A stretch of DNA of 63,687 nucleotides. It comes from a virus. The notes below the pieces were generated by a model that saw only the letters and a program-made list of their open reading frames with translations, was not told where the DNA came from and did not search any database. The DNA lies in IMG/VR virus record IMGVR_UViG_3300045988_102303; one strand, given 5' to 3'. The position numbers were made by a program, and so were the translations under genes. This document shows positions 3,954 to 61,198 of this stretch, in pieces; position 1 is the first letter of the stretch, and each line of letters begins with the position of its first letter.

Positions 3954-4883
3954 TTAATGTGAATTAAGAATATTTAAAATACAACATTGTACCCCAACTT
4001 CTGGCGAATACTTCCCACTTTTTATACCGTTGTCATACTGTTGAATAAATCTAAGTGCAGCAAGTAGTCCACCTGGACTTATTTTGGTATTATTTAGTAT
4101 TTTCTTTATCTGCCAATAAGGAAGTCCAGTTTTTTCTGTAATACCTTGTTGACCTTTATGTCCTATCACTAATATAGCCATTGACACATTTTTATATAAT
4201 AAAGATAATATTCCAAGCGGATTACTATTTTGTGATAATAAATAATCTAATACATTTATTGCTTTACAGTTGTTACTTAATATCATATCTACTAAGTCAA
4301 ATACAGTATAATTATATTTTACTGGCATCAAATCTATCAATGTAGCCATTGTAAATTCTTTATAGACTCCAGCAGCTTTTAACCTGTTATACTTATCAAT
4401 TTCGTTTATAATTGTAGTATAATCATTATTACAAGCATTAACAAAATATTCTAATGTTTTCTTATCGGTTGTTAGATTATAATGTTGTATCTGATGTATA
4501 AGTTGAGTAGGAGTTAATTTTTTAAATTCTACTACATAATAATTCCATGTTTTATACCAAGCTGCTTTCTTATTAGCAGTTGTGATTTGAACTATTAGCG
4601 TTCCTAACTTTGCTTTTTCCAGCTGTTTAATATTTTCCTCTAAATGTTTGTTATTTAAAAAATCTAAATCGTCACGAACAACATACACCTCTTTTGTACT
4701 TTTATTAAATCCAAAACCCCTTGTAGTCAACTTATTTAATACCTCACTTACAGTATCAACTCTTTTATATTCACCAAATTGTTTTAGATATACATTTTGA
4801 AGTCCAATCTCATCTCCTGTAAATATATAGAAATTACCTATGTTGTTAGTTCTTAATTGTCTATTTAGCTCCACTAATTCCAT
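3954..4883 (-). CDS. holA: Clamp-loader delta subunit (HolA-like)
   Basis: 309 aa; N-terminus NFYIFTGDEIGLQNVYLKQF resembles the HolA start (xLxYGEExxL); sits in an operon with DnaX and delta-prime. Confidence 0.55.
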   Translation of the reverse strand: MELVELNRQLRTNNIGNFYIFTGDEIGLQNVYLKQFGEYKRVDTVSEVLNKLTTRGFGFNKSTKEVYVVRDDLDFLNNKHLEENIKQLEKAKLGTLIVQITTANKKAAWYKTWNYYVVEFKKLTPTQLIHQIQHYNLTTDKKTLEYFVNACNNDYTTIINEIDKYNRLKAAGVYKEFTMATLIDLMPVKYNYTVFDLVDMILSNNCKAINVLDYLLSQNSNPLGILSLLYKNVSMAILVIGHKGQQGITEKTGLPYWQIKKILNNTKISPGGLLAALRFIQQYDNGIKSGKYSPEVGVQCCILNILNSH

Positions 4884-5206
4884 TATCTTTTCCCCTTTCT
4901 ATGAATTACTTTTTTCTTAGATTTCTCTGCTTTTTCTTTTGCTATATGAATTCGTTGTTTAGCTTCTATTTCCTTCATCATACCTTGAGTAAATCTATCC
5001 TCAAATAGTTTTCTAAATTTTCTTGGCATCACATTTTCCATATCGCATTTTTGTATTTGATACAAGGTGTCATATCTTTTATTGGCAAATATTCTCACCC
5101 ATTTTTCAGTACTTTGCCAGTCGAAACACATTTTACAACTATGAACATATGCACATGCTGTTTCTAATATTTGTTGTTCAGTTGTTATTTTAAGCATAAT
5201 ATTCAC
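4883..5206 (-). CDS. Hypothetical protein inside clamp-loader operon (107 aa, basic C-terminus)
   Basis: ORF overlapping both neighbours by start/stop coupling; no motif recognised. Confidence 0.55.
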   Translation of the reverse strand: MNIMLKITTEQQILETACAYVHSCKMCFDWQSTEKWVRIFANKRYDTLYQIQKCDMENVMPRKFRKLFEDRFTQGMMKEIEAKQRIHIAKEKAEKSKKKVIHRKGKR

Positions 5207-6008
5207 CTCTTCTTAATCTACAATCTAATACCCATATATCGAACGCCATTTCTTTATTAGACCCATTTACTTTTATTGTATTCAATGCTTTTATCGTACA
5301 ATCAATAATATATAATGCTTTTGGGTCATCAATATGTTTTCGACATATAAATAACATCATATTAAAAAACATGTCTAAAGGAAATCCATCTCCTTTTCCT
5401 GTAAAGTTAATTCTATTTTTTATTTTGAACGCATTACCCGTTGTAACCTTCATGATATTATTAAATACCATTTCAGCGAAATTATAACAATCTTTATAGC
5501 CAACTTCCATATATAATTTTACATCACCTGGAGTTGTTGCTATTTGGCATATATTTGAAGTGTCTTCATTATCACTCATAGCTAACACCTCTATAGCATA
5601 TTTTTTTAAATCTTGATATGAATATTTATCTATTTCAAATATAGTTCCTCTGGATATAATAGTCTCTAATACTGAATTTATATCAGTTATTTCCATTGCT
5701 ATATAACAATTCTTTGGTGGCTCCTCAGTTATCTTCAATAATGCATTTTTAGCGCCTAATGACATTGTAGTGCCTTCAGATATCACAAATAATGTTGGTT
5801 TTTCTAATGCAACTGAATCTTGAATCAACTCCCTAATATTGTCTATTTTATTATCAATATATTGCACTCTTAATTGTTTCTCAGCAGCCATCCTCTTTAT
5901 AAATAAAGATTTCCCAGCACCTCTTGGTGCTGAGATTATAGACAAATGAGGTAAATTAGTCATTTTATTTAACATTTCCAGACAATTAATCATTCCAACT
6001 ATTTGCAT
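5190..6008 (-). CDS. holB: Clamp-loader AAA+ subunit, delta-prime (HolB)-like
   Basis: Walker A-like SAPRGAGKS, LKITEEPPKNCY (sensor/EEPP box), SRG motif; overlaps dnaX stop. Confidence 0.6.
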   Translation of the reverse strand: MQIVGMINCLEMLNKMTNLPHLSIISAPRGAGKSLFIKRMAAEKQLRVQYIDNKIDNIRELIQDSVALEKPTLFVISEGTTMSLGAKNALLKITEEPPKNCYIAMEITDINSVLETIISRGTIFEIDKYSYQDLKKYAIEVLAMSDNEDTSNICQIATTPGDVKLYMEVGYKDCYNFAEMVFNNIMKVTTGNAFKIKNRINFTGKGDGFPLDMFFNMMLFICRKHIDDPKALYIIDCTIKALNTIKVNGSNKEMAFDIWVLDCRLRRGEYYA

Positions 6009-7015
6009 AATTGCATCAACTCACTTTCAATAAAAATCTTTGGATTATGTTCATATCTAATTTTGAAATATAATTCATTATAACTATCTAATATACTTAA
6101 TAATTGCCCTGATGTACTATGCTTAATTATATCAGTCACTATAGCTTGACAAGATTGGGGTAAATTGTCACTGCTTCCACCCATTTGAAGTTTTATTACA
6201 TCTAACAATACTTTTATTGAGTCCTTAATGAATAATTTTAAATCTTTGCCATCTAAGAATATATTATCTATTGCCCCCAATACATTTTTTGGTTCTTTGG
6301 ATATTATATTATCTATTATTTCTAATATAAATTGGGTTGATGTTAACCCTAAACATTTTATAACTGCACTAGATGTTATATCTTGAGTAAATCCTAATAC
6401 TGTATCTAATTTTGTTATTGCATCCCTCATTCCACCTTCAGCAAGTTGTGCTATATATTGCAGCGCTTCATCAGTATACTTAATTTCATCAGTTCTAGTT
6501 TGATTCTCTTTTTCTATTATATAGGTTAATCTATTCATTATTCGTTGAGTCGGGATTCTCTTGAAGTCAAATCTTTGCACTCTTGATAATATCGTACCTG
6601 GTATCTTTTGTGGGTCAGTTGTACAAAGTATAAATATAGTCCCCTTTGGAGGTTCTTCTAGTATTTTTAGCAGCGCATTGAATGCTCCTATACTTAACAT
6701 ATGAACTTCATCTATTATAAATACTTTATACGTTCCATCAAGTGATTTCATTTTACAGTTATCAATTAAATTTCTTATATTATCGACCCCATTATTACTT
6801 GCTCCGTCTATTTCTATAATTCTACCTTCACCTTTATTTATTTCATTTGCGAATATTCTAGCTGATGTTGTTTTGCCTGTTCCTGCACTTCCACAAAATA
6901 AATATGCTTGTTTAAATTCATTCAAATCTATTTGATTTTGAAGAACTATTTTTACATTATCTTGACATACTATATCATTAAATTTTTTTGGTCTATATTT
7001 TGTCGCTAAATTCAT
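5999..7015 (-). CDS. dnaX: Clamp-loader ATPase gamma/tau (DnaX-like)
   Basis: KYRPKKFNDIVCQ, GSAGTGKTT (Walker A), IIDEVHMLS (Walker B), AFNALLKILEEPP, ILSRVQRFDF (SRC-type motif). Confidence 0.85.
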   Translation of the reverse strand: MNLATKYRPKKFNDIVCQDNVKIVLQNQIDLNEFKQAYLFCGSAGTGKTTSARIFANEINKGEGRIIEIDGASNNGVDNIRNLIDNCKMKSLDGTYKVFIIDEVHMLSIGAFNALLKILEEPPKGTIFILCTTDPQKIPGTILSRVQRFDFKRIPTQRIMNRLTYIIEKENQTRTDEIKYTDEALQYIAQLAEGGMRDAITKLDTVLGFTQDITSSAVIKCLGLTSTQFILEIIDNIISKEPKNVLGAIDNIFLDGKDLKLFIKDSIKVLLDVIKLQMGGSSDNLPQSCQAIVTDIIKHSTSGQLLSILDSYNELYFKIRYEHNPKIFIESELMQLCK

Positions 7016-10470: not shown

Positions 10471-11271
10471 TTAAAATAATTTTTTCTGTTTTTTAGATAT
10501 GTCAGTTTTTGTGTTTAATTGTGCATCATACAATTTAGGATACTTTAATCGTTCTTCAGCTATATTGAAATACTTTTTATCCAATTCTATGCCGATAAAT
10601 TTTCTATTAGTGTTTAAACAAGCAACACCTGTACTCCCACTGCCCATTGTAAAGTCCAGAACTAAATCTCCTTCATTAGTATAAGTCTTAATTAAATATT
10701 CAAGTAGTGCAACTGGTTTCTGAGTTGGATGTAAACCTCTATCCCTTTTGTATTGTAATATATTTACAGGATATCGATACATATATTCACTAACACGCTC
10801 ATCTGAATACTTCAAGGGAGAAGTCTCACTTTTGCTGTTACTTCCCGCTTTTCTATTCATTTTCTCAGATTTAGCTAATTTACTCATTTGTGGGTTATAA
10901 ACTGGAGTTTTATTGCAAAATACAGATATATTTTCATTTTTCATCAAAGGTCTATAGCGTACCAGTTGAAAGCCAACACCCTGTTCTTTTTCCCAAATCC
11001 AATCATATTTATAGTTTTTTATATTACTTGTTCTTAGCTTACTACTAAATGGCTCAGTCCCAAATAATACAATAGCCCCATTAGGTTTTATTAATTTATT
11101 TAATCTCGTCCACATCTCGTTCAAAGGTATAATCACATCCCATTTGCAAGCAGTAGTTCCATATGGTGGGTCAGTGATTATAACATCAACTACTATGCCC
11201 TTTGCAATTAGTTTATCCATTACTTCCAAACAATCCCCATTATACAATTGGTATTTCTCATTCTCAATCAT
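10471..11271 (-). CDS. Beta-class DNA (amino) methyltransferase 1, probably N6-adenine
   Basis: Motif IV DPPYG near N-terminus, motif I DFTMGSGSTG near C-terminus; ends ...KKQKKLF. Confidence 0.85.
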   Translation of the reverse strand: MIENEKYQLYNGDCLEVMDKLIAKGIVVDVIITDPPYGTTACKWDVIIPLNEMWTRLNKLIKPNGAIVLFGTEPFSSKLRTSNIKNYKYDWIWEKEQGVGFQLVRYRPLMKNENISVFCNKTPVYNPQMSKLAKSEKMNRKAGSNSKSETSPLKYSDERVSEYMYRYPVNILQYKRDRGLHPTQKPVALLEYLIKTYTNEGDLVLDFTMGSGSTGVACLNTNRKFIGIELDKKYFNIAEERLKYPKLYDAQLNTKTDISKKQKKLF

Positions 11272-11285
11272 CTAAACTCGCCCCC

Positions 11286-11981
11286 TTAAAATAAATGTTT
11301 TTGTCTCCCACTCGGCTCACTCTTCTTTAGGCGTTCTTCCGCTATATTAAAATAATCTTCATCTAATTCGATGCCGATAAATCTACGATTAGTATTCATA
11401 CACGCTACACCAGTTGAGCCACTGCCCATAAATGGGTCTAAAATTAATTCGTCCTTATTTGTTGACTGTTTTATAAAAATCTTCAACAAATCAACAGGTT
11501 TTTGTGTGGGGTGATATATATTTCCAGTTGCGTGAGCTGGTATGATGTCTGGAAATCTTTTACCGTTTCTTAATCTTCTCCCCTTATGCCCAAATAATAT
11601 AAATTCATGTTTAGGAGCATACGCTCCCTTTAAGTCCCCCATAGTTGAATTATGCTTATCCCATACTATTATATTTTTTAGTTTAAAATATTTTTCAAAT
11701 GCAATTTTAAATTTATCTATATGATGCCAACTACAGAAGCAATATATATGAGTGTTATCTTTTAGTAGCTTATCGCATTTCTGAAAAAATTCATCAAGAT
11801 ACGATAAATCGTCATCATTGGCAATTTTTTTATACTTCTCGGTTCTTTGGCCACTTTGAAAATTTATCCCATATGGAGGGTCTGTTATTACTGCATCTAC
11901 TTTGACTCCAGTCTCGATTAATTTATCCATAACCTTCAAGCAATCCCCATTATATAACTCATATTTGTCATTTTTAATCAT
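11286..11981 (-). CDS. Beta-class DNA (amino) methyltransferase 2
   Basis: DPPYGINF ... HPTQKP ... DPFMGSGSTG; ends ...GRQKHLF. Confidence 0.85.
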   Translation of the reverse strand: MIKNDKYELYNGDCLKVMDKLIETGVKVDAVITDPPYGINFQSGQRTEKYKKIANDDDLSYLDEFFQKCDKLLKDNTHIYCFCSWHHIDKFKIAFEKYFKLKNIIVWDKHNSTMGDLKGAYAPKHEFILFGHKGRRLRNGKRFPDIIPAHATGNIYHPTQKPVDLLKIFIKQSTNKDELILDPFMGSGSTGVACMNTNRRFIGIELDEDYFNIAEERLKKSEPSGRQKHLF

Positions 11982-13769: not shown

Positions 13770-14828
13770 CTATTCATTATCCATTGTGGATAATAACATT
13801 TTATCTTTGTCTGATACTATTTTTATTAAATCTGGATTTCCATATTCAATATCTATAGTAGGAGAATCTACTGAGCTGATTAAATCATATAAGAACTTGA
13901 TATTTACTTCATATACTATATCTTCATGTCTAGGGCTGTCTTTTGTTGTTATGCTTTCCACTGAACCGCCTGATGTTTGTAGAGTTATTAAATCACCTAC
14001 AAATGCTATTTGCAAAGTATTCATATCATATACATCAATAAATAATCCTATTCTATTCAATGCCTTTAAGAATTCTTGTGTATCAACTGTGCATAAACTT
14101 GGTTGTGATTCTTCTATCATTGGTAATATACCTGGATATTCTTCAACACCTTCCATTAATGTTCCGCTTATTACTATATTTTTACATTCGAACATTATTG
14201 AATTATTATCTGTATCTACAAATATATCAACTTTTTCATCATTTAATGTAGATGCTAAATTTGCTAGAGAAGGTGGAATTAATACTTCTAACCCGTCACA
14301 TTCAAAATCTGATGCATTTACTTTTATTGCGTCTGCTGTTATTATATGGTTACTTCTAATTAGATATCCAAATAAACAACCATCAGCAGCTGTTTGAGAT
14401 TTAACGTTTTTTCCTACGTTAAAACCATGCTTCAAGTTGTAAGTAACACAATCTTTTATTTCTAATGCTCCATTAGTTTCGATTTTATGGTCAGGATATA
14501 CTTCATCTTGTACTAGCTCAACTTTATATGTTCCATTACCTTTTACTTCTAGATAAGTTCCTTTATCTGTAAGAGTAACATTTTCTGTTGTTGTTTTATT
14601 TATCAGTCTTACAAATTGGTCTGTCTTTATTATGAACTCAACTGGTTCATCATTTACTTCATTATCTTGGAATACTGTTATGTGATTATCCCCATCTGTT
14701 GCATTAATTTTTAGTCCGTCACTATCACATATTAATTGAATATAATTAGATATTTCTAATAATGGATTTGGTTTTATTTTAGTCACATGTCCCAGCATGT
14801 TTTTTAATTTATTTGTGTTTATCTTCAT
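13770..14828 (-). CDS. dnaN: Sliding clamp, bacterial beta (DnaN)-like
   Basis: 352 aa; N-terminus LKNMLGHVTKI...NPLLEISNYIQLICDSDGLKINATDGDNHI resembles the DnaN domain I pattern; size fits three-domain beta. Confidence 0.7.
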   Translation of the reverse strand: MKINTNKLKNMLGHVTKIKPNPLLEISNYIQLICDSDGLKINATDGDNHITVFQDNEVNDEPVEFIIKTDQFVRLINKTTTENVTLTDKGTYLEVKGNGTYKVELVQDEVYPDHKIETNGALEIKDCVTYNLKHGFNVGKNVKSQTAADGCLFGYLIRSNHIITADAIKVNASDFECDGLEVLIPPSLANLASTLNDEKVDIFVDTDNNSIMFECKNIVISGTLMEGVEEYPGILPMIEESQPSLCTVDTQEFLKALNRIGLFIDVYDMNTLQIAFVGDLITLQTSGGSVESITTKDSPRHEDIVYEVNIKFLYDLISSVDSPTIDIEYGNPDLIKIVSDKDKMLLSTMDNE

Positions 14829-14904: not shown

Positions 14905-15825
14905 TTATAATTCTATTCCTTCTCCGTACCATCTTTCTGTAACTTCTATATCACATTTCATTGGTATTTCGAATTTGTCATCTACTACATGCACCATTAT
15001 ATACTCTAATCTATCTCGTACTGCTTTTGCATTTTCTCTTGGGCATATTCCCAACACCTCATCGTGAACTGGGATTATTAATTTATACCCAAGTCTATTA
15101 AGTTCTGTATCATTAAATATTCTTATCATTGTAATTTTAGTCATATCAGCAGCACTTCCCTGGATTATACTATTTACACATTGTCTTTCAGCATCTTTAA
15201 TAAAGCCTCTATTATCTTTTATTGTATAACCTTCCTGTGCTGCTAATTCTTTTACATTTTGTTGCTGTTGTTTACCTCTAGCTTTATTTAATAATGTCCA
15301 GTACTTCTTATATATCTCATTAGGTACATAATCATCTTGAGGTAAGTCAGTATTACCAAATGCGAATGGGTCAAAATTATCACTATATGATTTTATACAC
15401 GGTTTTATTTCTATTGGAGGTAATTGCATATCTGATAATCTTCTTTTTCTACCCCAAGCAGTTTCAACAAATCCATAATCTCTTGCAAATGATTGAGCAA
15501 AGTCTACAAATTCTTTTACCTTTGAAAATTCAGTATAAAAATCATCAATTATTTTTTGGGCCTCTTGAGTTGATATTTTTAGCTGCTCTGCTATACTTGG
15601 TACACCTCTACCATACATAATCCCCAATAATACGGGCTTAACGCTTGTACGTCTTGCCTTACCTTCAGGATTAACAGAACCATCGGGTCTAAATTCCAAA
15701 CATTCTTCATATGGCATTTTGTATATTTTACTGGCGATTGTACCATAGAGGTCTTTTCCTTCTAAATATGCATTTATCATATGTTCATCACCACTCATAT
15801 GTGCTAGACAACGTGGCTCTTGCTG
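14905..15825 (-). CDS. polA: Family A DNA polymerase, exon 2 (begins QQEPRCLAHMSGDEHM)
   Basis: Frame stays open upstream of the track ATG to CAG CAA GAG CCA at 15825; carries the rest of motif A, motif B (KPVLLGIMYG) and motif C (VHDEV). Confidence 0.85.
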   Translation of the reverse strand, partial: QQEPRCLAHMSGDEHMINAYLEGKDLYGTIASKIYKMPYEECLEFRPDGSVNPEGKARRTSVKPVLLGIMYGRGVPSIAEQLKISTQEAQKIIDDFYTEFSKVKEFVDFAQSFARDYGFVETAWGRKRRLSDMQLPPIEIKPCIKSYSDNFDPFAFGNTDLPQDDYVPNEIYKKYWTLLNKARGKQQQQNVKELAAQEGYTIKDNRGFIKDAERQCVNSIIQGSAADMTKITMIRIFNDTELNRLGYKLIIPVHDEVLGICPRENAKAVRDRLEYIMVHVVDDKFEIPMKCDIEVTERWYGEGIEL

Positions 15826-16583
15826 CTTTCTGTTACGAGGTTCGCTACACCTCCTCCAGTTTCCTGGAGTGTCGGACTAGCTCTTCAGTATCGGTAATTA
15901 TCCGATAAACTGCTCGGCGTTTCGAAGTCGCTTGACTCCTACTCTACTAAGTTGACTTATATTATAAGTCCTGTTCGATAGTCTCTACACTCGGTACATA
16001 TCTCCATTTATAACCCCCTGCGGTTTTTCTTTTACCTCTACATACTTTGCTTATATTCTGTCTAGCAATTCCTGTCTTCTCTTCAGCATGTATAGGACTT
16101 TCAAATTTTTGGATTATATTTCCTTCCAAATCTAATTGGAATACAGGTTTACATTTAGTTCCTGGGTATATTTTAAATCGTTCTATTTGATTCTTAGAGT
16201 TGTCTACCCATTCTAAATTACTTACTTTATTATTTAATCTATCACCATCTATATGATGTACTATAGGGTAATTATTGGGATTTGGAATAAATGTCATAGC
16301 TACTAATCTATTTACTCTATACATCCCCCTTTTACATCCTCTAGATAGTTTAACCCTATAATATCCATCAGTAATATGCTTAGTAAGTAATTTACCTTCT
16401 TTGTTATATACATCACCATCTTTAGTAATGAAATAAAATGGATTTTCTATATTATCTATTATTAAGGGTTTCATATATTCACCTCCATTAATAGATATGT
16501 ACCTAGCTCGATATTGCCATGCCATTTATGGTTTAGGTTTCATCGAATTAACCGAGTTTTACTTCAGCCAGTCTTTTAGGTTA
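15826..16583 (-). mobile_element. Group I intron (758 nt) with HNH homing-endonuclease ORF, inserted in pol motif A
   Basis: P1: exon CUUCAGU pairs with intron GCUGAAG (intron nt 16-22) with U.G at the splice site; intron ends in G; GC-richer structured 3' part incl. CTCCAG-GAAA-CTGGAG; splicing restores GGDFS|QQEPR. Confidence 0.8.
15962..16474 (-). CDS. HNH homing endonuclease, I-HmuI-like (170 aa from the SD-preceded ATG)
   Basis: SD GGAGGTGAATAT-ATG at 16474; HHIDGDRLNNKVSNLEWVDNSKN (HNH) and C-terminal GIARQNISKVCRGKRKTAGGYKWRY HTH-like tail. Confidence 0.8.
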   Translation of the reverse strand: MKPLIIDNIENPFYFITKDGDVYNKEGKLLTKHITDGYYRVKLSRGCKRGMYRVNRLVAMTFIPNPNNYPIVHHIDGDRLNNKVSNLEWVDNSKNQIERFKIYPGTKCKPVFQLDLEGNIIQKFESPIHAEEKTGIARQNISKVCRGKRKTAGGYKWRYVPSVETIEQDL

Positions 16584-18038
16584 ACTGAAGTCGCCCCCTA
16601 CTATTACCATGCCATCACCCGCTATAAACATCTGTCTTATATCATGTCCTGCGTCTATTACAGTTCCATCACTTAATGTAGTTTTTTGAGATGGTATATT
16701 TTGTAAATTTGGGTCACTACTACTAAATCTACCTGTTTTTGCTCCATATTGATTAAAATTAGCATGAAGTCGGTTATCTCTTTTGGCAATATGACTTGGT
16801 ATGGCTTCTATATAAGTACTCAATAATTTGCTCATACTTCTATATTCCAATATGCTATCGACTAAAGGATGCTTAAAAGATTTTAATATAGCTTCACCTG
16901 TTCCTCTCGGTGATTTCCTATCTGGACTTTCAAACTCTAGCACATCATAAAATAATATAGCTAGTTGAGTTGGTGAACTTATATTAACCTTTCTTATCCC
17001 GTCTTTAAATAGTTTATTATAAGCACCTGGATTTTTTACCATTAATTTATCAAATTTATCATTTAATTTATCTATCTCCAAGTTAAATTTAGTCTCTGCT
17101 GCATCCATATGTTTTGTATATTGTTCTTTTAAACGATTAGCTAAATCTGTATCTATTTGTACCCCAGTACATTCCATTTCAAATACCACCTGAATTAGTG
17201 GCATCTCTATATTACGAAATACTTCTGCAACTCTCTCTAAGCCTTTTTCTTTACAATATTTTCCATTGATGTCTAAAAATTCATACTGGAATTGATATAA
17301 TTCATACGTCATTATTGGGTCAAATGATGCATACATATAAGCGACATCTGGAGGTACTTTGTTAAATTCTATACCTTTAAATAATGAGTTAAAAGATGCA
17401 ACTTTACTATCTTCATCTGCGTTATCTACATATTTCTTATATAATTGTTTCAATCCATGCGGCTCATTTTCATTTAATAAATAACCACCAATTAAAGTGT
17501 CCCAATATGGAATTATTTTAACTTTGAGCATCCACCATAATATGTGCATGTCAAATTTAGCATTATGAAGTATATATTTTACTTTAGACTTATTCATTCG
17601 TTCAAATTGCTCTTTCATGAAATCTACTGCTACATTTGTCTTCAATTCAATCCCAGTCATATAGCTTTCATGTCGTATTGGAATATATATCCCCTTCTGA
17701 CCTGGTGTGTATAAGCATACACCTGCTATTTTTCCATCTATTCTATCTAGTCCATTTGTTTCGGTATCAACTGCTATTATGCCATTTGCAATAGCGCAAT
17801 CTATATAGGATTTAATCCTATTATCATCATCTAATAATTCCAGTCTATCTAATTTATCTGCAAACACTTCTTGAGACATATCCTTCGCCAATTGCACTTT
17901 ACCACTAATGCTCTTAGGTACTATTTTTCCAACTTGTTTTTTACTGGATTTTTTATTTAACATTTCAAGTGCTTTCTTTTGGGCCTCTTGAGTTTTCCTT
18001 GCACTAACATTACAGAACATATCGCCTATTCGTCCCAT
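16584..18038 (-). CDS. polA: Family A DNA polymerase, exon 1 (3'-5' exonuclease + N-terminal polymerase part, ends GGDFS)
   Basis: Exo motifs IAVDTETNGL and YASFD; SSPTQLAILFYDVLEF; NLQNIP; ORF stops on a TAA that is the first triplet of the intron. Confidence 0.85.
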
Positions 18039-19159: not shown

Positions 19160-20623
19160 CTAATCACATTTTGTCCAGCCACAATTAAAGCAGCTAATGC
19201 AACCTCCAGTGTAAGTTAACGCTGCACCACATTCTGGACATTGTTTACTCTTGGCAATAATTTTATCTTGTACTTTTAATTCAACTATTTCAGGTTGATT
19301 TAAATAGGTACATTTAAATTGCTCATGCAATTTTAGGAGTTCTCTGCCTATTGCATCTGCGCAGCTTCTACCACTACTTATATCTGATTGAGTAGCTTTT
19401 TTACTTATAAATGAAGGGCAAGCAACAACTGAATTTAGTTGGTCAACTATCTCCTCAACAGTCGCACCTTTTTTACCAGCTAGTGATATAAGTCTTGATA
19501 ATCCTACCATATAACTATTACAACCGCCTTTACTTCCTTTGTTTAGGAATATATGACATAATTGTCCAGTTTCCTTATGGAAATATACGGTCATCCATAA
19601 ACTACCACAACCTGTTTGTAGTTTGCTGCCAAATGCAATACAATGATTTATTGCTGTATCAATTGTATTTAGTTGAATAGGTTTAGATTTTTCTTCTTTA
19701 GGTTCAATTTTGTTTAATATACCGACTTTTTTACAACCATCTCTAAATACGGTTAACCCCTTACAACCTAATTCATGTGCTAATACGTATGCCTTAAATA
19801 CATCTTCAACAGTTGCCTCATTCGGTAAATTAAGCGTACTGGATATACTAGCATCAATCCATTGTTGCCAATCTGCTTGAGTTTTTACCCTACTCATAAA
19901 GTCAAGGTCTTTTGCTCCTATCAGATAAGCTGGTTTATTATTTAACATATCTATGTCATCAGCTTCTATTGCTTGGTGAACAATATCTGGGTATTCCATA
20001 TATACTTTATCTTCGGCATTTAGAGACTTAGTAGTTCTTGCGAATCCGTTAACATCGTATACAGGCTCAACTCCAGTTGATATTCCAAACATTGTACCAA
20101 TACTGCCTGTTGGAGCTATTGTAAATAATTGACTATTTCTTAAACCATAAGTTTTTATTAAATTAATAGTTTCATCTGAAATTACGCCATCTTTTATTTT
20201 ACTTTGCATATAAAATGAATTAAGTATAAAGTCTTCATTATATGATTCAAATGTACCTAATTCCTTTGCAAGTAAAGCAGACTCTTGAAGTCCTGCATTA
20301 CATAATGCTTTACCTATTGTCGCTATTAATTTTGAGCATCTATCACTACCATATGGAATTCTCATTTTAATAAGCATATCACCAAATCCCATAATACCAA
20401 GTCCAATTTGTCTCCATTTTGCAACTGAATCTCTTTGTATTTGTAATGGATGTAATGGTAGGCCTTCATCTAATACTTGATTCAATGCTCTTACTGCAAT
20501 TTTTACAGCCCTTATAAACGCTGGTGTATTAAATACGGGTCTTTCCCCAAATGGGTCTTTTACAAATTCAGATAAGTTTAATGACCCTAACAAGCAACTA
20601 CCTCCAGCTGGTAATGGTTCTTC
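19160..20623 (-). CDS. nrdJ: Class II (B12-dependent) ribonucleotide reductase, exon 2 (begins EEPLPAGGSC)
   Basis: EEPLPAGGSCLLGSLNL follows the NPC(A/G)E active-site loop; TGCGSLWMTV (TSCPD-type domain); C-terminal CPECG...CFNCG. Confidence 0.8.
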   Translation of the reverse strand, partial: EEPLPAGGSCLLGSLNLSEFVKDPFGERPVFNTPAFIRAVKIAVRALNQVLDEGLPLHPLQIQRDSVAKWRQIGLGIMGFGDMLIKMRIPYGSDRCSKLIATIGKALCNAGLQESALLAKELGTFESYNEDFILNSFYMQSKIKDGVISDETINLIKTYGLRNSQLFTIAPTGSIGTMFGISTGVEPVYDVNGFARTTKSLNAEDKVYMEYPDIVHQAIEADDIDMLNNKPAYLIGAKDLDFMSRVKTQADWQQWIDASISSTLNLPNEATVEDVFKAYVLAHELGCKGLTVFRDGCKKVGILNKIEPKEEKSKPIQLNTIDTAINHCIAFGSKLQTGCGSLWMTVYFHKETGQLCHIFLNKGSKGGCNSYMVGLSRLISLAGKKGATVEEIVDQLNSVVACPSFISKKATQSDISSGRSCADAIGRELLKLHEQFKCTYLNQPEIVELKVQDKIIAKSKQCPECGAALTYTGGCISCFNCGWTKCD

Positions 20624-20925
20624 CACTTTGTTATCCTAAAGGCTTTTTATCCTCTAGTTCTAGGGATTTCTCCCATCGTTAGATATTACCATCTCTAACT
20701 ACTAACGGTCAATTCCGCTCTAGGTCGGCATATATTTTCACCTCCCACAGGGTAGTGGTTCAAACGGTGTTAGGAACTCGTGGAGGGATTATTACTTTCA
20801 TTTTAACGTTCACCCTCTATGCTCTACAAACGATATTAGATATTATCGCTCTCGGTATTACCTTATCCATTTAGAACTTAGGCTTCACCGATACATCCTA
20901 ATTTTTTACTTGAGCCAAATTATTT
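20624..20925 (-). ncRNA. ORF-less group I intron (302 nt) in nrdJ
   Basis: Exon CUUGUGCU pairs with intron GGCUCAAG (nt 10-17; 7 of 8 pairs, U.G at splice site); last nt G; visibly GC-richer than flanks; no ORF; splicing restores NPCA|EEPLP. Confidence 0.75.
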
Positions 20926-21672
20926 AGCACAAGGATTCACCCCTGCAAACTCAAATTCACCATTCTTAATATATTCAGATAGTAATGTTTCTTTATTAAT
21001 ATTATCCCAAAATAACATTCCAGGTTCTCCCCAGTCCCAGTTATTTTCAGCTAATTTATACATTAAATCATTAGCATTTCCATCTCCAGCTATTACTCTT
21101 GTCATAAATAGGTCATCGGTTCTTACTGATATATTACATTGTTCTAATTTTTTATTTTGAGTTTTTGCGTTAATGAAATCTTTTATCTCTGGGTGATTAA
21201 CACTCATGGATATCATTAATGCCCCACGACGTCCCTTTTGCCCTATCGTTTGAGATGTGTTATTGAAAGTATCCATAAAGCTAACTGCTCCAGTTGTGGT
21301 CATTGCTGCGTTATTAACAGGGCTACCTTTTGGTCGAAGTTGTGATATATCAATACCACAACCTCCACCATAACTAAAGGTTCTAGCTAAATATTTATTT
21401 GTATCATATATCTCCTCAATACTGTCGCCAACTTGAGGTAATACATAACAATTACTATATGTTACTTTTCTATCTGTTACCCCTCTCGATGCTAATATTC
21501 TGCCACCAAATATAAATCTTTTATTTATTATTAAATCTTTAACTTCAGTATCTCCATTTGATACTCTATCAAGCCATTGGGCAAAAGTTTCATCGCCATT
21601 TTGATATTTTTTCTTCCAAATATCTTCTCCTAACTGACTTAATTTCCAATCTTTTAGTTCCATATACAACAT
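20926..21672 (-). CDS. nrdJ: Class II ribonucleotide reductase, exon 1 (ends GVNPCA)
   Basis: FIFGGRILASRG, GGGCGIDISQLRPKG, RRGALMISM and terminal NPCA; the ORF runs 2 codons into the intron before TAA. Confidence 0.8.
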
Positions 21673-25774: not shown

Positions 25775-26422
25775 TTACTTTCTATAAAGTTCTTTATTAA
25801 TTAATGGTCTTACAGGTTTTAGAGGTTGTAAATCTTTTAATATTTTATCTAATCCCCTTGAAGTAAAATGTATATCTTTATGTCTTACTATAAAGATATA
25901 TCTATAATCATAATTTGTTATTGCTCCGTTATATTCTACTACCCAATCATTATCAAATAAATATTGTTTTATATCTTTACGTCTTAAACCAGTAGCACTG
26001 CATACATCATTTATAGTATCACCTTTTATTTTATAATTTAATAATTTGGTTATTTTATGTTGGAGTTGTTCTAATTGTTGTGTAGTTGCTCCCTCATCTA
26101 TATAACCTCCAGTTTTTCTTATTTCTGGTAATACTTCATCCATAACCCATTCTTCAAATTTTTGTGCTGATGGTAATTTACTACTAAATATAAGTCTATA
26201 AACATCTCCTTCAGGTATTAAATTAATTTCAGTTCCATTAACTTTTAACCCGTTACATTTTGTAACGCCTTTACATTTTCTACTTAATACAGTTCTCCAA
26301 CTACCTTCAGCATATCCCAATGATTTTAATACATCATTAGCAACTACATATGGTTTACCTTCAATTTCTATTCCTCTCATTTCTCCAAATTCTTCATTAG
26401 TGAATAGTTGTAATTGTTTCAT
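25775..26422 (-). CDS. Bro-N domain protein (antirepressor-like)
   Basis: FTNEEFGEMRGIEIEGKPYVVANDVLKSLGY ... KFEEWVMDEVLPEIRKTGGY. Confidence 0.75.
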   Translation of the reverse strand: MKQLQLFTNEEFGEMRGIEIEGKPYVVANDVLKSLGYAEGSWRTVLSRKCKGVTKCNGLKVNGTEINLIPEGDVYRLIFSSKLPSAQKFEEWVMDEVLPEIRKTGGYIDEGATTQQLEQLQHKITKLLNYKIKGDTINDVCSATGLRRKDIKQYLFDNDWVVEYNGAITNYDYRYIFIVRHKDIHFTSRGLDKILKDLQPLKPVRPLINKELYRK

Positions 26423-57788: not shown

Positions 57789-59132
57789 TTAATATTCTCC
57801 TTCCTTTTCTAATATTGCAATTTCTTTATCTAGTGTTCCATGTAATATGGAATCTGTCATTATTGCATATCTAATTTTATCCATAGCATGGTCATCAATT
57901 TTTATAACTTCTTCCACGCCTTTATCCAGTTTGTCACTATCCCAAGCATACGTTGTAAACTCTTCAATATCTTTTATGCAGCTTGGGTCTAATGTAAATT
58001 TCCTTTCATTCAATAGAAATGATACAACTTGTATACCCAAGTCCACCCTATTTTTAGCAGGTAATATATCAATTCCATGTCGTGCAAAATATGGGTCTTT
58101 TCTTAATTGTACTATCATCGGAGCAGCTGAAGGGTCAAGTGTAATATACTCTGGCATTACTAGATTATCTGCTAAAAATTGTTTTAAATCATCTGCATAT
58201 TCTTCTGTTGTCTTTTGACCGTCATCTCTACCTGAATGATAATAACTTGCTATTTGGTGGTAACGTCTTTCAGGTGCATAATATCCAAATATGCCAAAAG
58301 TCGTCGCATTCTGAATACCGAAGTCACCTGCTACAAATATTCTAGTCCATCTTCTCTTAACTTGAACCGCATGAATATCTGGGTCAAACATCGGATATAC
58401 TATACCATCGGCAGCTACCCATAGTCCTAATATATATCGCTTATAGAAAACTCCAGTATATAATGCTTTATATCTATTTTTAACTTCTTCACTTAATGAT
58501 GGGTTATCGTCCATTGTGAAATGTAGATATAATACTTTTTTCTCAGTAACTTTATTTATCCATTCTTTTTTAAACCAATGGAACGGTGAATTGGGGTTAC
58601 ATGAAAACCAAAACTTTGCACCTTCAACTGAACATCTAGCTGTTGCTTGATTAACAAAACTCGCAGGCATCAATGCAACTTCATCAAAGAATACGCCAGC
58701 TAAAGTAATACCTTGAATTAAATCTTGTGAACTCTCATCTTTTCCACCGAATATATAATAATAATTAGTTGTTTTCTTTTTAGTTTCTTTGTCTATAGCT
58801 CCTATACAAAAACACCCTTCCATTCTTGAATCTTCTATAATATAGCCTGTTGATTTTAACATTTGTTTTAATGGACCCAGCACATTACGTCTTAACCCAC
58901 CAACTGTTTTACCACACAAAGCAAAGTTCTTGCCGTCAAATGTACTCATACTCCATAATACAAATGATAGTGCTTCAGATACTGTTTTTCCACTTCTTAC
59001 TGCACCGTCGCATATAATTGCATCAAAGTCTTTATACTTACTTGTAGGTGTCCACCAACTCATAACAATACTTTGTTTTTGACTAAATGGCACAAAGTCA
59101 AATGGCACAACTCTATCTTTTAATCTAAGCAT
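57789..59132 (-). CDS. terL: Terminase large subunit
   Basis: Walker A CDGAVRSGKT, Walker B-like GVFFDE, C-terminal nuclease acidic residues (DDHAMD). Confidence 0.85.
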   Translation of the reverse strand: MLRLKDRVVPFDFVPFSQKQSIVMSWWTPTSKYKDFDAIICDGAVRSGKTVSEALSFVLWSMSTFDGKNFALCGKTVGGLRRNVLGPLKQMLKSTGYIIEDSRMEGCFCIGAIDKETKKKTTNYYYIFGGKDESSQDLIQGITLAGVFFDEVALMPASFVNQATARCSVEGAKFWFSCNPNSPFHWFKKEWINKVTEKKVLYLHFTMDDNPSLSEEVKNRYKALYTGVFYKRYILGLWVAADGIVYPMFDPDIHAVQVKRRWTRIFVAGDFGIQNATTFGIFGYYAPERRYHQIASYYHSGRDDGQKTTEEYADDLKQFLADNLVMPEYITLDPSAAPMIVQLRKDPYFARHGIDILPAKNRVDLGIQVVSFLLNERKFTLDPSCIKDIEEFTTYAWDSDKLDKGVEEVIKIDDHAMDKIRYAIMTDSILHGTLDKEIAILEKEGEY

Positions 59133-60430: not shown

Positions 60431-61198
60431 TTAAAATAGTTTCTTCTGTCTATTACTTAATGTAGCAGCTTTCATTCTATCATTAGCTATATTGAAATAT
60501 TGTGTGTCTAATTCTATCCCAATAAATCTACGATTTGTATTAATGCATGCAACTCCAGTACTTCCGCTGCCCATTGTAAAATCAAGAACTAACTCGTCTT
60601 CATTAGTGTATGTTTTTATAAGATATTCAAGAAGTGCGACTGGTTTTTGTGTAGGGTGTAATCCCCTTTCTGAATTAAATTTCAATACGTTTGACGGATA
60701 ATTAGTATACCATTGTTCATAAGTAGCTCTTTTCTTCTCGCTGGATAAATGCCCTAAATTACCGCCCTTACCTTTATTTGATTGTATTATAGGCTGTTTT
60801 AATTTTATCAATCCTTGCGGATTATATGTTGGCAGTTTCGTATAAAATATATTTATATATTCAGTTTTCTTTAGAGGCATCTTCTTGCAAAGTTGAAAAT
60901 TCACACCTCTCTCCTTTTCCCATATCCAATCATACTTATAATTTTTTATATTACTATTTATTAATTTTGCTGTAAATGGATTATCTGAAAACAATGCTAT
61001 TGCCCCATTGTCTTTTATTAATTTATTTAATCTCTCCCACATTTCGTCAAACGGGATAATAGAATCCCATTTACATGCGGTAGTTCCGTAAGGTGGGTCG
61101 CATATTACTGCGTCCACCTTTACTCCCTGTTCAATTAGTTTATCCATAACTACTAAGCAGTCACCATTATATAATTTATATTCCTCATTATTATTCAT
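60431..61198 (-). CDS. Beta-class DNA (amino) methyltransferase 3 (paralogue of 10471..11271)
   Basis: DPPYGTTACKWD ... RGLHPTQKPVALLEYLIKTYTNE ... DFTMGSGSTG; ends ...NRQKKLF. Confidence 0.85.
   Translation of the reverse strand: MNNNEEYKLYNGDCLVVMDKLIEQGVKVDAVICDPPYGTTACKWDSIIPFDEMWERLNKLIKDNGAIALFSDNPFTAKLINSNIKNYKYDWIWEKERGVNFQLCKKMPLKKTEYINIFYTKLPTYNPQGLIKLKQPIIQSNKGKGGNLGHLSSEKKRATYEQWYTNYPSNVLKFNSERGLHPTQKPVALLEYLIKTYTNEDELVLDFTMGSGSTGVACINTNRRFIGIELDTQYFNIANDRMKAATLSNRQKKLF

Follow-up and report, generated by a model that had tools for sequence, protein, structure and literature searches.

Why do all three DNA methyltransferases (MTases) of one phage end in almost the same five residues, Q-K-[K/H]-L-F? 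We addressed this question in IMG/VR record IMGVR_UViG_3300045988_102303, a phage genome of 63,687 nt with ~31% GC and almost every gene on the minus strand; "the window" refers to this whole stretch of DNA. An earlier note, made from the sequence alone, had read these endings as peptides that tether the MTases to a sliding clamp. The following sections establish the motif and its position off the enzyme fold, how selectively it is conserved, on which enzyme families and in which types of phage it occurs, and the fold of the phage-encoded clamp. On this basis, we consider the terminal Qxx[L/M]F-type tail very likely to be a selected docking peptide. With clearly less confidence, we favour the prediction that the tails of the three MTases dock on a beta-type clamp, most likely the phage's own.

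Three methyltransferases share a C-terminal appendix

The three enzymes, MT1, MT2 and MT3 (Table 1), are predicted beta-class N6/N4 DNA MTases. Their PF01555 bit scores were 114.5, 144.1 and 112.6, against a curated cut-off of 26.7, and motif IV (TDPPYG, residues 33-38) preceded motif I (MGSGSTG, near residues 209-215), which is the beta-class motif order. The open reading frames (ORFs), the three QK[K/H]LF C-termini and the order of DPPY before FxGxG were thus as the earlier note had described them. Its linker lengths of about 20, 9 and 9 aa were right in being variable and slightly off in their figures, which we measured as 19, 8 and 8 aa.

All three tails match the loose clamp motif Q-x-x-[L/M]-F exactly at the C-terminus. 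Of 75 ORFs on the minus strand with a length of 60 aa or more, MT1-3 alone have a Q..[LM]F ending, and the expectation from the composition of the proteome is 1.5e-4 per terminus. The distribution of the tail over 3/3 MTases versus 0/72 other ORFs has a chance of 1 in 67,525; since MT1-3 are paralogues, the three tails are not independent events. The PIP box of proliferating cell nuclear antigen (PCNA) partners, Qxx[LIM]xx[FY][FY], was also considered and was unmatched: each chain stops with its first aromatic residue, a second aromatic pair is missing, and the clamp is of a type other than PCNA.

To place the tail relative to the fold, we used the nearest solved MTase structure, M1.HpyAVI (5HFJ, 232 aa), a complete fold closing at ...KKRL, which aligns with ...EERL of the window MTases. 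By that point the 5HFJ fold is already complete, so that the 13-24 residues past ...EERL (8-19 of linker and the five of the motif) count as an appendix. In the AlphaFold2 (AF2) model of MT1, the predicted local distance difference test score (pLDDT) was >90 for the core to approximately residue 243 and 51-59 for the last 20 residues. With a fold that closes ahead of it, a low-confidence tail, linkers that vary and an end that is fixed, the idea of a short linear motif on a flexible tail was borne out.

MT1 and MT3 are ~60% identical and the PF01555 core is common to all three enzymes, so the ending might be a functionless inheritance from the ancestor of the paralogues or a product of gene conversion. 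The tail codons, however, are CAG AAA AAA TTA TTT in MT1, CAA AAA CAT TTA TTT in MT2 and CAG AAG AAA CTA TTT in MT3. Because these differ synonymously and the downstream DNA is unrelated, the ending is maintained at the protein level rather than as a DNA repeat. The same differences in codons and flanks rule out a repeated or regulatory DNA element where the MTase genes end. Neutral inheritance is also at odds with the variable linkers before a fixed end, with the presence of the tail on unrelated enzyme families and with its ~50-fold enrichment over shuffled tails, both described below; we regard it as extremely improbable.

The tail follows the phage type

Among the 240 closest database homologues of the MTases, the majority end directly past ...RIEE or ...RLENIK and have no tail. 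Those with an [N/K][R/K]Q[K/R][K/R/H]LF tail are on phage contigs of 60-74 kb. The MT3 homologues P0041 and P0077, on phage contigs of 64-74 kb, retain SRQKRLF and NRQKKLF, respectively, and the tail is likewise retained in phages with a clamp or clamp loader (P0122-4, P0126, P0131, P0133 and both MTases of L340). P0123 shares its contig with another MTase, which ends ...RQRKLF, and the phage they come from has the same module of DnaB, primase, ribonucleotide reductase and PolA as the window; P0131 lies directly behind an operon of DnaX, delta', a 107-aa protein and delta. P0125 and P0127, which are 79-80% identical to MT2, are found in unrelated contexts without the module and stop before the tail, at ...NRMENSI. 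Further close tail-less homologues belong to temperate-type phages and adjoin terminase genes. In the cultured phages with MT2-like MTases that were inspected, Pseudoalteromonas HS5 and H105/1, the tail was absent. Where the tail is present, the linkers differ (KKSEPSGR, ENSIISDK, ENVKLNNR, ENTLINNK) and Q-basic-basic-L-F is constant. Judged from these comparisons, the presence of the tail tracks the phage type or clamp module, not the phylogeny of the MTase.

DpdA and other DNA enzymes carry the same ending

In protein-level searches the window phage falls into one clade with the Streptococcus phages Dp-1 and MS1, the Bacillus phage Flasso and the Clostridium phage phiCTP1; the relation to Dp-1 is only distant. 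A megablast search of the replication module against INPHARED gave no match, and the kin surfaced solely at the protein level. The gene order across this clade is DpdA - DnaN - Cas4/RecB - RecU - ... - RecA - ... - DnaX - delta' - delta. DpdA was looked for in the window genome and none was found.

Using a 13-sequence clamp alignment as the seed, we collected 43 viral loci with the Dp-1-type clamp family (27-91% identity) and inspected the ORFs within 10 kb. Every DpdA in these loci (~45, tandem pairs included) ends in [Q/R]x[K/R/H]LF, as do 6 of the 7 MTases within that distance. The only other ORF of at least 80 aa ending in [LM]F is a 104-aa antisense ORF, which is probably spurious. Sister phages whose DnaN is 85-91% identical often have no MTases at the MT1/MT2 slot. 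What they have instead, directly upstream of dnaN, is a QueT transporter and a 305-aa DpdA-like DNA transglycosylase (phrog_887, E 1e-45) that ends ...STKFQKRLF. As the window lacks DpdA, two alternative chemistries of DNA protection within one phage group appear to wear the same tail. The DpdA gene is also just upstream of dnaN in the cultured phages Dp-1 (Gp7, ending ...KNRQRRLF), MS1 (gp6, ...KHKQNRLF) and Flasso (...ISQGKLF), and the DNA of Dp-1 has been shown experimentally to contain dPreQ1 (PMC6884629).

The sister loci L001 (6681-9986), L002-L004 and L136-L156 have, in the stretch from the polymerase gene to dnaN, QueT and either a single DpdA gene or a tandem pair, and two uncharacterised ORFs of 318 and 251 aa stand beside them. 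No queC, queD or queE was found beside QueT and DpdA in these loci, which suggests salvage of a queuosine precursor.

A second sample, seeded by DpdA, comprised 89 DpdAs with their neighbouring genes. In this sample 71/89 DpdAs end in [LMI][FW], most of them with a clamp gene starting 2-3500 bp downstream, and in many loci the DpdA gene ends 2-16 bp ahead of dnaN. Other tailed proteins in the DpdA loci were a class-I S-adenosylmethionine-dependent MTase adjoining DpdA (...KKSKKLF), an Nlig-Ia ligase-like protein (...RRRKLF), a DUF6884 protein (...KKQRKLF) and two families of unassigned function. In Gram-negative phages, where the next gene downstream of DpdA is annotated as a DNA polymerase processivity factor, the DpdAs end ...VMELF (SHIN8), ...EQRLF (RHEph04), ...QMELF (PSASB_03) and ...QSLW (ZHS); the terminal Leu is invariant in an alignment at 24-45% identity. 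The order dpdA, processivity factor, polymerase gene was seen in Escherichia phage SHIN8 (L130, 1411-3511), Rhizobium phage RHEph04 (L131, 1327-3593) and Pseudomonas phage PSASB_03 (L132, 1327-3197).

We also performed a scan of viral contigs for the DNA pattern of QKKLF followed by a stop, irrespective of protein family. This gave at least 120 stretches, mostly chance matches; among the matches listed were five ORFs of at least 170 aa, of which three encode PF01555 MTases, one a type IA topoisomerase and one an unassigned protein. At L109 (3099-6125), a phage type IA topoisomerase of 1008 aa ends ...IPKQKKLF.

This mixture of unrelated DNA enzymes fits the look of a clamp client list. It also bears on the possibility that the tail is intrinsic to the enzymes, as a basic DNA-binding arm or as a dimerisation or autoinhibitory peptide with no outside partner. 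The tails are indeed strongly basic, the MTases have an isoelectric point (pI) of 8.8-9.3, and the MT1 tail is helical in the AF2 model. Yet the terminal L-F recurs on unrelated folds (the tRNA-guanine transglycosylase-like DpdA, the Rossmann class-I MTase, the ligase-like protein and the topoisomerase), near-identical MTases are tail-less, and simple DNA binding by an arm gives no reason for the terminal Leu-Phe to be invariant. We consider an intrinsic role very unlikely.

The window encodes a clamp, its loader and a polymerase with a related motif

The earlier note had also placed a DnaN-like clamp and a DnaX/delta'/delta loader in the genome. Pfam matches supported both (Table 1), and the clamp was further supported by an AF2 model with a pLDDT of 94.6, which Foldseek matched to Bacillus subtilis DnaN (4TR6) with a template modelling (TM) score of 0.86. 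According to the model, the product is a three-domain beta-clamp fold. Its pI is 4.45. The peptide-binding cleft was mapped provisionally by alignment to the sequence of E. coli beta. In this alignment, the cleft positions are hydrophobic or conserved (L152, D166, V170, P232, M237, L345, L346, M349), and the residues equivalent to R365-L366 of E. coli beta are acidic. Across the clamp family, an acidic cluster is present at the C-terminus in 89/150 representatives and PxR in 0/150.

Table 1. Coordinates of the features discussed, as positions in the window
Feature	Coordinates	Strand	Details
MT1, beta-class N6/N4 DNA methyltransferase (predicted), 266 aa	10471..11271	minus	PF01555, E 8.8e-33; ends ...DISKKQKKLF
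MT1 pentapeptide QKKLF	10474..10488	minus	preceded by 19-aa variable linker 10489..10545
MT2, beta-class DNA methyltransferase (predicted), 231 aa	11286..11981	minus	PF01555, E 8.3e-42; ends ...EPSGRQKHLF
MT2 pentapeptide QKHLF	11289..11303	minus	8-aa linker before
MT3, beta-class DNA methyltransferase (predicted), 255 aa	60431..61198	minus	PF01555, E 3.5e-32; ends ...TLSNRQKKLF
MT3 pentapeptide QKKLF	60434..60448	minus	8-aa linker before
DnaN-type sliding clamp	13770..14828	minus	PF00712 + PF02768
DnaX-like clamp-loader ATPase	5999..7015	minus	PF13177, PF00004, PF22608, PF12169
delta'-like clamp-loader subunit	5190..6008	minus	PF13177
107-aa protein in loader operon, between delta' and delta	4883..5206	minus	position conserved in relatives
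delta-like clamp-loader subunit	3954..4883	minus	PF21694
Family-A DNA polymerase, N-terminal part	16581..18038	minus	phrog_17
Family-A DNA polymerase, C-terminal part	14905..15798	minus	phrog_17
Large terminase	57789..59132		near MT3

The family-A DNA polymerase begins MGRIGDMF (residues 1-8; 18015..18038, minus strand), an [LM]F motif at the protein terminus that is conserved in relatives and followed by ~50 basic, low-complexity residues. Polymerases of the clade begin MSLFKDTF or MALFNF, and that of Flasso begins MFQNSLF, which contains a canonical QxSLF. With this N-terminal LF-type motif the replicase has a candidate site for clamp binding. Since the polymerase is an expected clamp client, its terminal LF-type motif is internal evidence that the clamp of this clade reads terminal [L/M]F peptides.

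The polymerase motif also bears on a further suggestion, in which the tail would be a degron at the C-terminus, timing the removal of the modifiers, or a signal that targets them to the capsid for packaging into virions. Hydrophobic C-termini can serve as protease tags, CcrM needs its C-terminus for turnover, and protective proteins are co-injected by some phages. A C-terminal degron, though, would leave the N-terminal motif of the polymerase unexplained; the ligase-like protein is tailed as well, and the gene linkage is to dnaN, not to head genes. We judge this suggestion highly improbable.

Rather less improbable, if still distinctly unlikely, is a tail that docks on some other phage or host factor, such as the clamp loader, the 107-aa operon protein, a helicase, a single-stranded DNA-binding protein or a recombinase. 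The Q is variable, positions 2-3 are atypical of clamp motifs, and the 107-aa protein has a similar internal KFRKLF. Against such a partner, no alternative hub is known to read a terminal Qxx[L/M]F, the tightest gene linkage is that of DpdA to dnaN, and the polymerase bears the same type of motif.

The internal motif of the 107-aa protein is conserved as [KR]K[FYN][RK]K[LI][FY], is PRKFRKLF in the window and resembles the modifier tails; the C-terminus of this protein is very basic. A link between its motif and the MTase tails is speculative.

The two polymerase parts flank a 187-aa HNH_3/NUMOD homing-endonuclease ORF (15962..16525), and in relatives the polymerase is one uninterrupted 792-aa gene; the split of the gene (14905..18038) is probably an intron or mobile insertion. 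The large subunit of ribonucleotide reductase is likewise in two minus-strand ORFs, 20920..21672, in which the barrel domain begins, and 19160..20626, with the remainder. The ~290 bp that separate the two contain no ORF and may represent an ORF-less intron; in relatives the subunit is encoded by one gene of 603-735 aa. Another ORF on the minus strand, 25775..26422, starts with MKQLQLF, a perfect QLxLF. We set it aside as a clamp motif: the Bro-N Pfam match covers residues 15-99 of the product, MKQLQLF is just ahead of it and resembles the usual Bro-N start, and it is probably part of that N-terminus.

Clamp-type motifs are common on phage methyltransferases

To survey phage MTases at large, we drew 100 non-redundant MTases, 28-57% identical to MT2, from a varied set of 80 viral loci. 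A Q..[LM]F motif was present in the last 17 residues of 25/100, and in 13 of these 25 it was exactly terminal. Shuffled tails gave 0.5 and the reversed motif gave 0, corresponding to an enrichment of ~50-fold over shuffled tails. Among the remaining ORFs of these loci with 150 aa or more, 2/849 had the motif (odds ratio 141, p 6e-24). The variants QLSLF, QGDLF, QKDLF, QADLF, QKDMF, QKSMF and QQRLF belong to the textbook clamp-binding family.

A Dp-1-type clamp was encoded within 10 kb in only one of these loci. Since most of these loci have no phage clamp nearby, the host clamp is a probable target in many phages. The earlier note had suggested checking whether the terminal motif is conserved and co-occurs with a phage DnaN. 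The answer is divided: the tail is near-universal in loci with the Dp-1-type clamp, and it is common where no clamp is encoded within 10 kb, so that a strict rule of tail and phage DnaN occurring together does not hold. MTase homologues on bacterial genome contigs had a Qxx[L/M]F tail in 9/84 cases, a lower frequency than in the phage sample.

Several individual loci may be mentioned here. An unrelated viral contig (L172, 7396-10905) has four tandem MTase genes, all ending in Q[EQ]RLF. In L174 and L176, three tandem MTase genes end in QKDMF (followed by six residues), QDSLF and QLSLF. At L247 (501-1070), a 189-aa ORF that is not an MTase lies just upstream of an MTase gene and has a near-terminal RQIDLF.

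Phage clamp or host clamp

The frequency of these motifs raises the possibility that the host beta clamp is the sole target of the tail in the window phage as well, with the phage clamp serving the phage polymerase only. Canonical Qxx[L/M]F tails are common on MTases even where the phage encodes no clamp within 10 kb; together with the 9/84 tailed homologues on bacterial contigs, this implies that use of the host clamp must be frequent. The composition of the tails points the other way. Basic residues occupied both motif positions 2 and 3 in 29/56 unique tails from clamp-module phages versus 0/24 tails from the broad sample (p 2e-6), so the doubly basic Q[KR][KRH]LF was confined to phages encoding this clamp family. 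These clamps have an acidic C-terminal rim in place of the bacterial PxR, and the tail follows the presence of the phage clamp module. We therefore regard the host clamp as an unlikely sole target, and infer that phage clamp and phage tail are a co-adapted pair.

A wider reading would make the Dp-1-like pair of acidic-rimmed clamp and doubly basic xKKLF tails a private version of a general, hitherto unrecognised phage strategy of clamp-tethered DNA modification. We put this forward tentatively. In the general strategy, orphan MTases, DpdA and deazaguanine-tailoring enzymes would be clamp clients that modify DNA co-replicationally. With the private pair, only the phage polymerase and modifiers would have access to the phage toolbelt, and host clamp clients would be shut out.

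Proposed mechanism and the points against it

We propose that, as phage DNA replicates, Q-K-[K/H]-L-F on its flexible linker would hold each MTase to a beta-type clamp on that DNA by docking in the clamp's hydrophobic cleft. The likeliest clamp would be the phage DnaN, loaded by the phage DnaX/delta'/delta complex, and the newly made duplex would be methylated at the fork or just behind it. The polymerase may engage the clamp via its related N-terminal LF motif. Because a clamp dimer has two clefts, one ring could hold polymerase and modifier together; alternatively, the modifiers may use clamps left on the lagging strand. The tail would then be a common address label of the DNA modifiers of the clade, namely MTases in the window phage, and DpdA and deazaguanine-tailoring enzymes in its sisters. 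Binding, the choice of clamp and the anti-restriction benefit are what we infer from the features described above. The pay-off in particular, a faster protection of phage DNA from restriction, is a possibility to which we lean less than to the docking itself.

Several observations weigh against this proposal. Positions 2-3 of the motif are K-K, K-H and K-K in MT1-3, not the classical L followed by S or D, and MT3 sits 46 kb from the replication module. Across the clade Q is not invariant (RRRLF, NKRSLF and SNRLF were seen), and strict conservation is limited to basic-basic-L-F-COOH. The exceptional MTase among the clamp loci (L152) ends ...IKWLKKL, and some DpdAs adjoining a clamp gene end ...ARRIGL or ...GFNS. 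The homologue counts given throughout are raw, without phylogenetic independence. Finally, a table of two-hybrid interactions between Dp-1 and its host has no interaction of orf7 (DpdA) with host DnaN (PMC4840434).

If the proposal is true, it would explain how phages shield newly replicated DNA from restriction, with the modifiers travelling with the fork, and it would account for the adjacency of the DpdA and clamp genes in phages of both Gram-positive and Gram-negative hosts. The list of bacterial clamp clients would grow by epigenetic and hypermodification enzymes, and a terminal Qxx[L/M]F or xKKLF would be a sequence signature predicting co-replicational phage MTases. Clamp-cleft inhibitors or tail-mimicking peptides could then re-sensitise phages to restriction. 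Dp-1 offers a cultured test system, with measured dPreQ1 (PMC6884629), a DpdA ending NRQRRLF and its own DnaN.

Comparison with known systems

Bacterial beta-clamp clients include Pol II, Pol IV, UmuC, Pol III alpha, MutS, Hda and ligase, and the consensus of their clamp-binding motif, reportedly defined by Dalrymple and colleagues in 2001, is QL[S/D]LF. The proteins described here resemble these clients in having Q-x-x-[L/M]-F at the protein terminus on a flexible linker and in being DNA enzymes of many folds. A DnaN-type clamp is common to both, and its client-binding cleft is probably hydrophobic in the window phage too, to judge from the provisional alignment to E. coli beta. They differ in being DNA-modifying enzymes, in the basic positions 2-3 and in a divergent phage clamp with an acidic C-terminal rim.

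The T4/RB69 clamp gp45 has as clients the polymerase gp43, gp33 and gp55, which use short hydrophobic terminal peptides after basic residues; no DNA-modifying enzyme is known to be among them. A phage-encoded clamp read via terminal hydrophobic peptides would be the shared feature, whereas gp45 is a PCNA-like trimer and the window clamp is DnaN-like. In phage Mu, MuC is a clamp-dependent late transcription factor with a clamp-binding motif (bioRxiv 10.1101/2025.01.04.631326). It parallels the window MTases as a phage protein outside replication and repair that has such a motif. Unlike the proposed clients, MuC uses the host clamp, is a transcription factor and has no DNA-modification role.

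Phage DpdA, known from Dp-1, 9g and other phages (Hutinet et al. 2019, PMC6884629), is a further parallel: an anti-restriction DNA modifier of the same clade, encoded in the slot adjoining dnaN and with the same tail. Its chemistry is different, being a base exchange that inserts 7-deazaguanine, and the window phage is without it. Hutinet et al. 2019 mentioned no clamp link for DpdA (PMC6884629). The earlier note knew of no clamp-tethered prokaryotic or phage MTase, and our full-text literature searches agree: none turned up a report that a DNA MTase of a bacterium or phage, or a DpdA, is a clamp client.

In a 2022 review of clamp partners, Dnmt1-PCNA is the sole methyltransferase case cited (PMC9690074). 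There, a clamp-binding peptide brings the DNA methyltransferase DNMT1 to newly replicated DNA (PMC9690074), which is the recruitment we propose for the phage MTases. The two systems have no homology: a DnaN dimer stands against a PCNA trimer, a terminal Qxx[L/M]F against an internal PIP box, N6/N4 beta-class enzymes against C5 maintenance, and a probable anti-restriction role against epigenetic inheritance. If the proposal holds, the phage MTases would be an independently arisen prokaryotic and viral counterpart of DNMT1-PCNA. The clamp-binding peptide mechanism itself is well known; the class of client and its phage-specific flavour appear to be new.

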